Assembly: GCA_965116795.1 (NCBI GenBank)
Contig: OZ220716.1
Location: forward strand, 128,001-192,000
Length of the DNA: 64,000 nucleotides
From: Gammaproteobacteria bacterium
Lineage (GTDB): Bacteria; Pseudomonadota; Gammaproteobacteria; JAJFKG01
Direction: 5' to 3'
Below the pieces are notes generated by a model that was not told where the DNA came from, made no database searches, and saw only the letters and a list, made by a program, of their open reading frames with translations. The number at the start of each line of letters is the position of its first letter. The stretch's first letter is position 1. The translations under genes and the position numbers were made by a program. Positions 37,914 to 40,954 of the stretch are shown one piece after another.

Positions 37914-39611
37914 ATGGATGATATAAAAAGAAATAATGAAAATGTTAATAGTGATGTACTTATAAAAAAACTAAAAGAAGATATCGCATTACTGAAAGAA
38001 AAACATCAACAAGACTTAATTAATCAAAAAGATTATTATGAATCAATTATTGCTACGATGCCTGGACATGTTTATTGGCAAGACACGAATAACACCTACC
38101 TTGGATGTAATGATTTACAAGCCAAAAATGCAGGATTAGCCTCTCGTCACGATATTGTTGGTAAAAAGCTCTCTGACATGTTAGGAGCTGAACAAGCCAA
38201 AGTACTCGATAATATTAACGAAGAAATTATACGAACGGGTAAGCCATATGTTTCAGAAGAGTATGCTGTTATGAAGAATGGCGAAGCCATTTATTTATCA
38301 CACAAAGCACCACTAAGAAACAGACAAGGAGATATTGTTGGTTTGCTTGGTATCTCGATTGATATCACTGAACGTAAACAAATGGAAGAAAGGCTATTAA
38401 AAACAACTCAAGAGGCCCTAGAAGCAAATCGTGTAAAAACAGAATTTATCATGAACATGAGCCATGATATACGTACACCGTTTACTGGGATTTTAGGATC
38501 AGCATTTATTCTGCAAAGAAATGCTAGCACTGCAGAACAGCAAGAATTAATAGGTTATATAACCGAATCAGCTGAGCAGCTACTCAAGTTTGTCAATGAA
38601 ATATTGGATGAAATTTGCTGTGATTATGAACATAATCAACAGCTGTCGTTATTTAACATCGAAGATTTATTAAAAACAATCAAACAAATGATGGTCGCAA
38701 CCATAAATCATAAAAACTTAAATCTTCATATTGAATACCCTACTAATGCACCAGCACATATCATTGGAAATAAATTATTTATTAAACAAATCTTGCTAAA
38801 TTTGGTTAGTAATGCAATTAAATTTACTGAAAAAGGTACTGTTACGCTAAGTGCTTCTTTTAGTCAAAGAGAAGCAAATGATGTCACTTTAATTATTCAG
38901 GTTAGAGACACTGGGATTGGGATCCCCAAAGACAAGCAACAAGTTATTTTCGAGAAGTTTACTCGTTTAACCCCGTCATACAGCAGTGATTACGCTGGTA
39001 GTGGACTCGGGTTATGGAAAACAAAGCAATTGTTAACACAATTAAATGGTACCATCGACGTTGATAGTCAGGAAAGCCAAGGCTCTATCTTCACCTGTAA
39101 GATTCCACTACGGATATCTACAGGTATTGATAATTCGACTCAATCAGCTACAACTGATAAAAAATCGAAAAACATACCTGAATACACAGATCACCCAGTG
39201 AAAAACAGCTCTACACCAACTCTACGTTTTCTATTGGTTGAAGATGACATAATTGCAACCAATGTTATTAAATATATGCTCACTGAATATTTTAACTGTC
39301 AATTAGATATTGCAAGTACTGGCAAAGTTGGTATTGATTTAACGAATCGCCATATTTATGACTTAGTAATTCTTGATATTGGATTGCCTGATCAAAGTGG
39401 ATTTAATGTCGCTAAGCAAATTTATCAACACTCTGCCCACAATCAACAGTCACCTATTATAGGACTAACGGCACATCAACCTGCTGACTGGGTACATGAA
39501 GAAAATCAACAATTCTTTAAGGCTATCTATAACAAACCCTTATCATACGAAATATGTGCACAAATTGCTTCTATAACCAATATTAGTCTTTCTAAGGATA
39601 AAAAGGACTAG
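37914..39611 (+). CDS. Cytoplasmic PAS-HisKA-HATPase-REC hybrid sensor histidine kinase
   Basis: PAS (MPGHVYWQD..YLGCN..DITERK), H-box NMSHDIRTP, NLVSNAIKFT, DTGIGIP, GSGLGL, REC LLVEDD/DLVILDIGLPD. No TM. Confidence 0.95.
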   Translation: MDDIKRNNENVNSDVLIKKLKEDIALLKEKHQQDLINQKDYYESIIATMPGHVYWQDTNNTYLGCNDLQAKNAGLASRHDIVGKKLSDMLGAEQAKVLDNINEEIIRTGKPYVSEEYAVMKNGEAIYLSHKAPLRNRQGDIVGLLGISIDITERKQMEERLLKTTQEALEANRVKTEFIMNMSHDIRTPFTGILGSAFILQRNASTAEQQELIGYITESAEQLLKFVNEILDEICCDYEHNQQLSLFNIEDLLKTIKQMMVATINHKNLNLHIEYPTNAPAHIIGNKLFIKQILLNLVSNAIKFTEKGTVTLSASFSQREANDVTLIIQVRDTGIGIPKDKQQVIFEKFTRLTPSYSSDYAGSGLGLWKTKQLLTQLNGTIDVDSQESQGSIFTCKIPLRISTGIDNSTQSATTDKKSKNIPEYTDHPVKNSSTPTLRFLLVEDDIIATNVIKYMLTEYFNCQLDIASTGKVGIDLTNRHIYDLVILDIGLPDQSGFNVAKQIYQHSAHNQQSPIIGLTAHQPADWVHEENQQFFKAIYNKPLSYEICAQIASITNISLSKDKKD

Positions 39612-40954
39612 GGGTATCCAGGCGATTGTGGCTGTGTATTTCCGTTGATTCCCGGCGATAATCTTCCTCCTTTGTCTCCGTCTTTGAAGATACCAAATTG
39701 ATTATGACCATTAGCAAAACCTTGTTTAGCACCTTGTTGTTGAGCTTCATGTTTAGGGGGAGAGTTTGGGGGAGATATGCGCTGTTGTTTACTACGTTTC
39801 TCCTCCACATAGTGAACAGCAAAAGCCGCCCACCATTTAGGATCAGTACTAACTTGCATTAAAAGAGGGGCTACCTCACTTAATGGACCATCGTCATGCA
39901 TACTTGGTGGACTAACACTGAGAGAGCTACTATCACTAGAAGGAGAACTGCTACTAGAGAGGGAACTACTACTAGAGGGAGAAACACTATCAATAGGAAG
40001 GTAATATTCTTCTTCCTCTTCTTGTTTTTTGACTTTTAACTCAATTTTTATTAGTGGCGTTGGCTTTTTTTGAAATTTCGCTTGTACCAATTGCATTGCA
40101 TCGTTAACTGGCCTAGGCAAAGAGCCAGGATACAACATTGCATCAATTGCTCCTGCCCCCTTAATAAAAACGATAGCAGCAAGCAAACTTGCTTCTACTT
40201 TCATAAATTCAGCTATGTTGAGCAGCCCAATTTCTTTTTTCAAATTACTGACTATCTGCTTTATCTGTTCTTTTCGGGGTAAAGAAGCATGTTGATTCAA
40301 ACTTTGAACAAGTTTATCCCGGCGCTTTTCGGCCGCTCCTTTTAAATGTTCCCTATATTGTTGATTTTCACTGTATTGCTTTAAGATATGCTGCTGAATA
40401 ACAAGAAGAGTCGTTATTTCTCCTGATGAAATATTTTCACAGGAAAATTTTAACATTTGCTGCCAACGGACAATTTTAAATTTTCCAGCAGCGTACTTAT
40501 TGATGACATCAATTCTATCATCAGTACTTAAGTTTCGCTCATTAAAGTGAGCTATTACAGCATCTGCGGAACGTTCAAGCTGTGATACGCTGGCAGCTAT
40601 GCGTTCAATGACATCTTGCGTCAAGAAAGTACGACAATTAGCAGTAAACCAATCATCACCTAGCACTATAGCGTCATGCTGTAATTCATTTGCTCGTTCT
40701 AATGGTAAACCTTTTTCAGCATTAAGATTGAATTGTTGTGGTTCATCAACTAGGAAAAAAGTCGTTTTTTCAAATCGTCCAATTGTCTCAGCAAACCATG
40801 CTGGAAATTGATGCGGCAAAAATGCCTCATTATTGCCACATACACTTACTAACGCTAAGGCATGGCTATGTTCTGGTACTACGTTACTCTGTTTTAGATT
40901 GCTAAATGATACCTCGATAGTATCGTGTTCTTTTATTTTTTTATTCTTGGGCAT
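39608..40954 (-). CDS. tRNA-dependent cyclodipeptide synthase (CDPS)-like protein with Ser/Pro-rich C-terminal extension
   Basis: HALALVSVCGNNEAF (cf. AlbC HALIGISAGNSYF), F..TTFFLVD..QQFN, G.DW, IVRW, FMKVE (cf. YxxxE), LYPG (XYP-like). Confidence 0.6.
   Translation of the reverse strand: MPKNKKIKEHDTIEVSFSNLKQSNVVPEHSHALALVSVCGNNEAFLPHQFPAWFAETIGRFEKTTFFLVDEPQQFNLNAEKGLPLERANELQHDAIVLGDDWFTANCRTFLTQDVIERIAASVSQLERSADAVIAHFNERNLSTDDRIDVINKYAAGKFKIVRWQQMLKFSCENISSGEITTLLVIQQHILKQYSENQQYREHLKGAAEKRRDKLVQSLNQHASLPRKEQIKQIVSNLKKEIGLLNIAEFMKVEASLLAAIVFIKGAGAIDAMLYPGSLPRPVNDAMQLVQAKFQKKPTPLIKIELKVKKQEEEEEYYLPIDSVSPSSSSSLSSSSSPSSDSSSLSVSPPSMHDDGPLSEVAPLLMQVSTDPKWWAAFAVHYVEEKRSKQQRISPPNSPPKHEAQQQGAKQGFANGHNQFGIFKDGDKGGRLSPGINGNTQPQSPGYP

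Follow-up and report, generated by a model that had tools for sequence, protein, structure and literature searches.

Candidate synthase-sensor module in a gammaproteobacterial genome: a cyclodipeptide synthase-fold protein convergent with a soluble PAS hybrid kinase

Reports of cyclic dipeptides as signals resembling those of quorum sensing go back a long way, and the role of cyclodipeptide synthases (CDPSs) in intracellular bacteria of the Legionella type has been an open question since 2010, but searches of the open-access literature found no case of a dedicated CDPS shown to act together with its cognate receptor kinase. One question then is whether such a combination is encoded by two genes on a 64,000-nucleotide stretch of a gammaproteobacterial genome (assembly GCA_965116795.1, contig OZ220716.1), hereafter the window, which corresponds to G000:C1:128001-192000 of the source genome G000 (2.45 Mb, 41.2% guanine plus cytosine, GC). 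The open reading frame (ORF) at 37914-39611 on the plus strand encodes a soluble hybrid histidine kinase of 565 aa, P0002, while that at 39608-40954 on the minus strand encodes a CDPS-fold protein of 448 aa, P0001. The two are convergent and, in agreement with an earlier note on this DNA, have their stop codons on one CTAG at 39608-39611. We regard the pair as a divergent, apparently intact representative of a synthase-sensor module that is so far uncharacterised, and consider it very probable that the two genes are cognate and co-inherited; a synthase that may supply the ligand of its neighbouring sensor is, on the sequence evidence, the best reading.

Linkage of synthase and kinase genes in other genomes

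Support for a cognate pair comes from the recurrence of the arrangement elsewhere. In a search from the synthase side, covering 400 scored genomes of the class, 17 matched besides G000, and neighbours were read from gene maps at 26 loci in 17 genomes (25 listed places and one more). A PAS gene, in one case only a fragment, adjoins the CDPS gene in 24 of these; it does not at L060, with a transporter as neighbour, or at L075, at a contig end. The search from the sensor side, for which the query was an alignment of the P0002 PAS domain with its three nearest relatives, returned 79 genome and 45 metagenome loci, a CDPS being called at a score of at least 40 bits and a distance of at most 1 kb, and a locus being counted as well-flanked when both flanks reached at least 1.5 kb. 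A CDPS lay within 1 kb of the PAS gene in 49 of the 79 genome loci (45/63 well-flanked), the positive ones being divergent in 34 cases, co-directional in 12, convergent in 2 and fused in 1, and likewise in 21 of the 45 metagenome loci (10/18 well-flanked), with 3 convergent and 3 fused. The genome, metagenome and 26-locus sets overlap one another. Order-level searches round genomes G117 and G186 covered 1 and 2 genomes only. The enrichment of homologues beside PAS kinases, a check proposed in the earlier note, was therefore found from both directions, in 24/26 loci and in 45/63 well-flanked loci. The same linkage to PAS genes holds for short CDPSs that lack a tail. The probability of chance adjacency in G000 is about 0.2%, and the pairing of CDPS and PAS genes is, as judged from these gene maps, not a product of chance.

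The trees point in the same direction. Of the first loci, L055 and L056 have the PAS domains that match that of P0002 best, and both stand beside CDPSs of the clade of P0001, and the CDPS clade of P0001, L055 and L056 (supports 92/79, with three more proteins) is mirrored by a PAS clade of P0002, L055 and L056 (94/91), the three genomes belonging to three different orders; in the first trees three other small CDPS and PAS clades are mirrored too. This mirroring indicates co-inheritance, not co-evolution with a ligand. In Legionella longbeachae, locus L097 encodes a kinase of P0002's architecture that is 38.8% identical to it over 528 residues, and its neighbour is, compared by eye, identical to CDPS 28 over the approximately 400 residues shown in the supplement of PMC5816076. 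(Papers cited here by accession are represented by those portions of their text that were available.) CDPS 28 makes 95% cyclo(Ala-Ala), and CDPS 28 and 29 together make 95-97%; they belong to the cAA group of Legionellaceae, whose enzymes have insertions and an additional domain at the C terminus (PMC5816076, Gondry 2018). The available portion of that paper makes no mention of a kinase neighbour of these synthases.

A wider control asked for the neighbours of the kinase family at large. The PAS profile matched 176 of the 400 genomes, and 40 high-ranking loci were taken among about 150 matches listed, omitting loci of the earlier sets and three on short contigs and retaining a few duplicate records of the sensor-side set. 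Among its 35 kinases with full flanks, the neighbour was a CDPS in 11, a member of an unnamed 420-aa family in 14 (by a profile built from the wider-control loci themselves), an adenylation domain in 2, a weak CDPS in 1 and nothing synthase-like in 7, while in the PAS sub-clade of P0002 a CDPS is the neighbour in 48 of 62 genome loci. The kinase family is thus tied to synthase-like genes generally, and P0002's sub-clade to CDPSs.

The idea of a link between CDPSs and PAS domains is not wholly new. Near CDPSs, PAS domains were counted among the most frequent non-biosynthetic domains, and quorum sensing was proposed by analogy with Vibrio, in what is, in the text available, a brief statistical remark that describes neither the anatomy of a cassette nor a kinase family or pocket residues and reports no experiment (PMC5767969, Skinnider 2018). 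The claim that no characterised system of this form is known must be qualified to that extent, and otherwise stands, no characterised CDPS-kinase circuit having been found in the open-access literature, with subscription papers outside the scope. CDPSs of intracellular bacteria have been noted and host manipulation proposed for them (PMC2922099, Aravind 2010), orphan LuxR receptors for diketopiperazines are treated in a 2026 review (PMC13220807), a CDPS cluster is merely listed in PMC11828895, and the word 'cyclodipeptide' does not occur in the accessible part of Herran 2021 (PMC8023197).

Some cassettes depart from the two-gene form. Single ORFs that join a CDPS of strong score, a PAS domain and a kinase occur at L154:5236-8037, L189:2205-3674 and L208:5290-7080, and fusions with PAS and kinase domains in which the CDPS score is weak at L182:5869-8334 and L148:5095-7476. 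Broken cassettes are seen at L059, L075 and L279.

The synthase-fold protein and the kinase

That P0001 belongs to the CDPS fold emerges only when its homologues are taken together. As a single sequence it finds nothing significant in Pfam, NCBIfam or the PDB sequences and stays below cut-off against Pfam PF16715 and TIGR04539, which does not discriminate, since for the L097 protein, a match to the active CDPS 28, Pfam gives no CDPS match either. A single-sequence search of 60 related genomes gave nothing useful, the first metagenome scan with the P0001 profile confirmed 0 of 145 candidates, and an ESM Atlas match to a CDPS (0.84) lies below the reliable range and serves as a lead only. A word-index protein search returned the query alone, and with a profile the query, P0004 and P0007; the exhaustive search gave six proteins, P0001, P0004 (55% identical), the distant P0006-8 and P0005, the last dropped as a spurious repeat match. 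A five-sequence profile of P0001 and four homologues matched six CDPS sequences at E values from 9e-14 (the best, 5OCD) to 2e-7 and a seventh at 0.003, with nothing else below 0.2. In an AlphaFold model from a 30-row alignment (pLDDT 90, pTM 0.88) the leading Foldseek matches are CDPSs of the XYP subfamily, namely 5OCD (E 3.3e-10), 5MLP, 9J61 and Nbra-CDPS, with TM scores by target of 0.77-0.81 at the top and the same order from a model based on a 5-row alignment. A profile of 25 long-clade CDPSs from which P0001 was left out found P0001 alone in the genome (E 3.8e-20), and hhalign (99.5%) fixes the register; profile searches also make P0001 the sole CDPS-like gene of the genome. The fold test preset in the earlier note accordingly came out positive, and P0001 is predicted to have the Rossmann fold of CDPSs, similar to that of class-Ic aminoacyl-tRNA synthetases, and of the XYP type.

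Within the gene (39608..40954, minus strand), profiles, the model, Foldseek and the tree place P0001 in a long, insertion-bearing XYP clade. The CDPS domain, residues 1-310 (40025..40954, minus strand), carries Ser37, Asp70, Trp164, Phe250, Glu254, Tyr275-Pro276 and helical insertions, and is followed by a Ser/Pro-rich C-terminal tail of 138 aa (39611..40024, minus strand), which has short motifs in common with P0004 only, among the sequences compared. Ser37, Glu254 and Tyr275-Pro276 align with S37, E182 and Y202-203 of AlbC, that is with the catalytic Ser, the Glu and the cyclising Tyr. The CDPS-like motifs on which the earlier note relied are indeed in the right order and include these residues, but at the position of AlbC Y178 P0001 has Phe250 and so retains only three of the four conserved catalytic residues. 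In the family, represented by 110 distinct CDPS-like sequences, 100 of the 102 sequences aligned at the Ser retain it, and the Glu is found in 107/107 and the cyclising Tyr in 102/106. At the Y178 position 98 of 107 have Tyr and the other 9 Phe, the latter in several lineages and with one Phe possibly mis-registered; the CDPS family as a whole is thus catalytically intact.

The subfamily assignment follows the definition of PMC11580168: P0001 has Tyr-Pro at 202-203, lacks the N40/H203 pair, and has XYP enzymes as its nearest structures. In a tree of 34 chosen rows it sits on a long branch in the long clade (91/94, drawn open), all members of which are tailed, and outside the Legionellaceae sub-clade. 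It resembles CDPS 28 and 29 in its XYP fold, helical insertions, long C-terminal extension and want of a Pfam CDPS match, and the pair resembles the CDPS 28 locus in having a single-PAS hybrid kinase of the same architecture as neighbour, but P0001 differs in having approximately 20% identity to these enzymes, Phe for Tyr178, a bulkier pocket, further insertions, and a partner gene that is convergent, not divergent. The general anatomy of the cAA group, with several insertions and an extra C-terminal domain, is present; strict membership was rejected, P0001 lacking the P1 motif LLLAW[A/S/G][V/I][I/V] and, as it seems, the aromatic residue of the P2 motif with F-R-G. With a pocket that differs from that of the cAA group, the product of P0001 is not predictable from sequence, and P0001 is best classed as a CDPS-fold homologue, short of a proven CDPS owing to Phe250.

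The kinase (37914..39611, plus strand) consists of a coiled coil followed by PAS, HisKA, HATPase and receiver (REC) domains. PAS_4, HisKA, HATPase_c and Response_reg each score above the Pfam cut-offs, and no transmembrane segment was found in P0002 (best 19-residue hydropathy 1.02), in keeping with the soluble PAS-kinase-receiver protein of the earlier note. The PAS domain, residues 38-159 (38025..38390), belongs by profile and alignment to a VqmA-related subfamily; the HisKA and HATPase_c core with its H, N, G1 and G2 boxes lies at 38436..39113 and the C-terminal receiver at 39231..39500, all on the plus strand. The hallmarks of a hybrid kinase are intact, with the phospho-accepting His184, the N and G boxes, and the receiver residues Asp488 and Lys541, and P0002 is one of only two PAS kinases of its kind in the genome.

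What the PAS domain might bind is suggested by its relatives. As a single query against solved structures it gives no significant match, and for a profile built from 35 CDPS-linked PAS domains the best solved matches are 6UGL, 6KJU and 6IDE, which we take to be VqmA (E 5e-14), the BvgS PAS domain coming next (1e-8). The printed chain has K23, Y36, F67, D71, D85, H87, H97, F99 and K101 at the positions listed for VqmA in 10.1101/2019.12.19.881847, where K101 hydrogen-bonds the 2' carbonyl of the ligand DPO and K101R abolishes binding. Lys131 of P0002 aligns with K101, and Glu116 with D85, the lysine being invariant in the PAS alignment. Like the VqmA-DPO receptor of Vibrio (10.1101/2019.12.19.881847), the module would combine a cytoplasmic PAS domain of the same subfamily, a carbonyl-binding lysine and a small, amino-acid-derived ligand with a six-membered ring; unlike it, P0002 has a kinase phosphorelay as output in place of a C-terminal LuxR-type helix-turn-helix (HTH), and the proposed signal would be tRNA-derived and come from a linked, dedicated synthase. 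A prediction of the complex of CDPS domain and PAS domain scored 0.00 and is evidence neither way.

Linkage of a synthase gene with the gene of a sensor histidine kinase is also seen in LqsA-LqsS-LqsR of Legionella and CqsA-CqsS of Vibrio (PMC8023197), where, in contrast to the tRNA-dependent fold and the PAS kinase without transmembrane segments seen here, an alpha-hydroxyketone synthase is paired with a membrane-bound receptor. Regulators of a related kind are at hand in G000, with two full LqsR-like proteins (G000:C1:72281-73285 and 2145719-2146735, both beside histidine kinases) and one weaker (452154-453071), as well as a stand-alone Hpt (G000:C1:2359140-2359574). Many cassettes of P0002's family also carry an LqsR-like regulator, by match (E 2e-56) to 6SY9, which is presumably LqsR. 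The stand-alone Hpt and the LqsR-like regulators may offer a downstream route for the phosphate of P0002.

The proposed circuit and its rivals

On balance we lean towards a mechanism in which the CDPS-fold protein makes a small cyclic dipeptide from aminoacyl-tRNAs, the cytoplasmic PAS domain binds it and the phosphorelay is switched. Ser37 would be acylated from an aminoacyl-tRNA and a diketopiperazine then formed, probably slowly because Tyr178 is Phe; the characterised clade members make cyclo(Ala-Ala). The product would build up in the cytoplasm either by influx from neighbours or the vacuole, in which case density or confinement would be sensed, or as a reflection of how much charged tRNA the cell itself has. 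Lys131 would bind the ring carbonyl as K101 of VqmA does for DPO, and phosphate would pass from His184 to Asp488, to the stand-alone Hpt and to a response regulator, for example an LqsR-like one. The module offers a candidate receptor, a candidate residue and, through clade relatives, a candidate ligand class, which makes a two-protein test in vitro possible. More tentatively, we propose an undescribed signalling class of Legionella-type host-associated bacteria, in which a VqmA-type PAS kinase reads the cyclic dipeptide of a linked synthase and so couples population density or vacuole confinement to the supply of charged tRNA, the synthase slot being modular (XYP or NYH CDPS, non-ribosomal peptide synthetase (NRPS), YcaO or an unnamed 420-aa family). 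If true, this would amount to a family of private peptide languages, possibly with a new synthase family, and would suggest what might take the place of LqsA signalling in Legionella species without it (PMC8023197).

Several observations weigh against this circuit. About 30 records are of the Legionella family with one common ancestral locus, so that the linkage counts are not independent and exaggerate the number of separate cases; the correlation of CDPS with PAS similarity is weak (Spearman 0.40, p 0.058, n 23); and in the larger trees supports are lower and the exact place of P0001 inside the long clade is unsettled. The 7 of 35 full-flank kinases of the wider control without a synthase-like neighbour have counterparts in 6 of the 62 PAS-clade genome loci, and linkage as such cannot separate a kinase that senses the product from one that regulates the synthase. 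At the locus itself the convergent orientation rules out a single operon, and neither an exporter nor a PQ-loop unit is present. In the synthase, the conserved Tyr is missing from P0004 as well as from P0001, both having Phe, and AlbC Y178F is described as 'poorly active', if still acylated to some degree (PMC3105412), the question of the AlbC Y178 mutant having also been addressed by modelling (PMC5935735); P0001 has LLFVWLLM in the P1 pocket where the cAA group has LLLAWAVI, and it appears to have lost the aromatic residue of P2, whose position is not aligned. In the kinase, the stacking residues F67 and F99 of VqmA are replaced by Leu and Ser129, a change that would fit a non-aromatic diketopiperazine ring. 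The K101-equivalent lysine also occurs in 20 of 21 PAS domains that have no synthase beside them and, being family-wide, is not diagnostic of the ligand; as proof of a CDPS-made ligand it was rejected.

Alternatively, the kinase could be a pathway-specific regulator that responds to a different cue and governs how the synthase is expressed, whose cyclodipeptide would then target the host cell or competitors. Divergent transcription, typical of regulator and target pairs, is the commonest arrangement (34 of the 49 positive genome loci), the same kinase family flanks unrelated synthases, host manipulation has been proposed for CDPSs of intracellular bacteria (PMC2922099), and G000 encodes IcmK/DotH; yet a hybrid kinase with no DNA-binding domain needs no adjacency and is nevertheless linked in all orientations, convergent and fused included, and the mirrored PAS and CDPS sub-clades together with the VqmA-type pocket fit ligand matching, and we consider this regulator unlikely. 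Somewhat less likely again is a catalytically altered P0001 that binds, or is acylated by, aminoacyl-tRNA without much product and reports charged-tRNA status to the kinase by contact. The Phe for Tyr178 that P0001 shares with P0004, its 55%-identical homologue with a conserved tail, the residual acyl-enzyme of AlbC Y178F (PMC3105412), the fusions at L154, L189 and L208 and a pocket bulkier than that of the cAA group would all suit such a reporter, whereas the retention of Ser, Glu and cyclising Tyr, the activity of the clade relatives CDPS 28 and 29 as synthases (PMC5816076) and the presence of the same substitution in 9 of 107 members of several lineages, where it may be tolerated, argue against it.

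We hold it improbable that the module is decaying or orphaned, with a weak or silent synthase and a kinase that listens to the cyclodipeptides of other organisms: the long branch of P0001 and P0004, the Y178F-type change, the rearranged position of the pair next to a shortened cpoB with a dispersed repeat, and the broken cassettes elsewhere (L059, L075, L279) are set against two intact reading frames and against P0004, whose same substitutions at 55% identity across the whole domain argue for selection on an altered protein. A shade less probable still is that P0001 is exported by a type IVB system as an effector that targets aminoacyl-tRNA of the host, its low-complexity tail being the export signal. 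IcmK/DotH is found above cut-off in G000 (G000:C1:381822-382529, E 8.8e-87), the DotA profile having matched nowhere, controls included, and the Ser/Pro tail is long, bears a Glu run (residues 312-318) and has counterparts in all long-clade members. An effector, however, needs no cytoplasmic sensor kinase as neighbour, short tail-less CDPSs show the same linkage, and type IVB export signals sit near the C-terminal end of a protein, whereas the Glu run lies some 130 residues from it. Chance adjacency of two unrelated inserted genes, to which the convergent orientation and the differing GC of the two genes might point, is the least probable of all, being refuted by the synthase-side and sensor-side counts, in which the linkage recurs from both directions, and by the fact that the sole CDPS-like gene of the genome adjoins one of its mere two PAS kinases of this kind. 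The synthase and sensor circuit remains our preferred reading.

The locus and the wider cassette family

As the earlier note had it, the two genes are inserted between core genes: in G001, of the same genus, the site is empty, and full-length cpoB faces and directly abuts a 180-aa gene. In the window this gene, which follows mutH and is also present in G001 and G002, forms the left flank (37130..37672, plus strand). The right flank is a truncated cpoB/ybgF (41657..42046, minus strand), 129 aa against 318 aa in G001, which has lost its TPR half and ends in a dispersed repeat of approximately 175 bp (41487..41662); the repeat marks the right boundary of the inserted segment and has 20 BLAST places in the genome, its own copy counted. 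Neither boundary repeats nor a target-site duplication were conspicuous around the segment. The description of both genes as AT-rich was upheld for the kinase gene alone, whose 34.2% GC is at the 4th percentile of 931 ORFs of at least 300 aa, and rejected for the CDPS gene, which at 39.2% is at the 26th. The shared CTAG (39608..39611) is an ordinary 4-bp convergent overlap, of which ORFs of at least 150 aa show 10 in the genome, and any special meaning was rejected. Scans for promoters (9 against 15.6 expected) and terminators (2 against 2.2) stayed at or below chance, and no tailoring enzyme stands beside the pair among the window ORFs and in a Pfam scan, as had been claimed. A public contig, which may be the source sample, is identical over 37000-40936 (0 differences), and sequencing runs of two other studies cover the stretch in short pieces with no variant within either gene.

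Further afield, the same PAS-kinase family is found beside NRPS, YcaO or NYH-type CDPS genes (L079, L080, L083 and L084 in G002; L256, L272, L274; L131, L159; L257), and in G002 all nine PAS kinases examined adjoin a CDPS (5) or an NRPS (4). That the slot next to the kinase is filled by NRPS, YcaO, NYH-type CDPS or the 420-aa family is as expected of interchangeable signal synthases. The last of these, of 405-455 aa, takes the place of the CDPS between a PQ-loop gene and the PAS kinase and has conserved CQIRA and HPQY motifs (L244:3665-4933, L245:133-1497, L259:5451-6719, L145:4674-5891, L063:4525-5808 and about a dozen more loci). Mutual BLAST identity is 20-45% for most pairs, no usable match in Pfam, NCBIfam or the Atlas names it, and we consider it a candidate new signal synthase.

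Other features accompany the cassettes. A PQ-loop (SemiSWEET-like) membrane unit of about 100 aa, absent from G000, precedes many of them (L022:66-371, L023:8224-8541) and is fused to the kinase N terminus at L069, L072, L139, L248, L249 and L275. Regulators of the XRE-type HTH or S24-like kind are frequently encoded immediately downstream of the cassettes, in convergent orientation (L022:3777-4478, L057:2899-3582, L059:228-860, L071:417-1067). Judged from their translations, the kinases L022:1429-3729 and L023:5229-7454 of G002 cassettes appear to be pseudokinases without the phospho-accepting His. Elsewhere in the window, two minus-strand ORFs with no Pfam match over cut-off lie near one another: a probable outer-membrane protein of 554 aa (31083-32747) precedes a protein of 1686 aa (25774-30834) with long stalks of PIPTP-type repeats, Cys-rich blocks and a C-terminal transmembrane segment.

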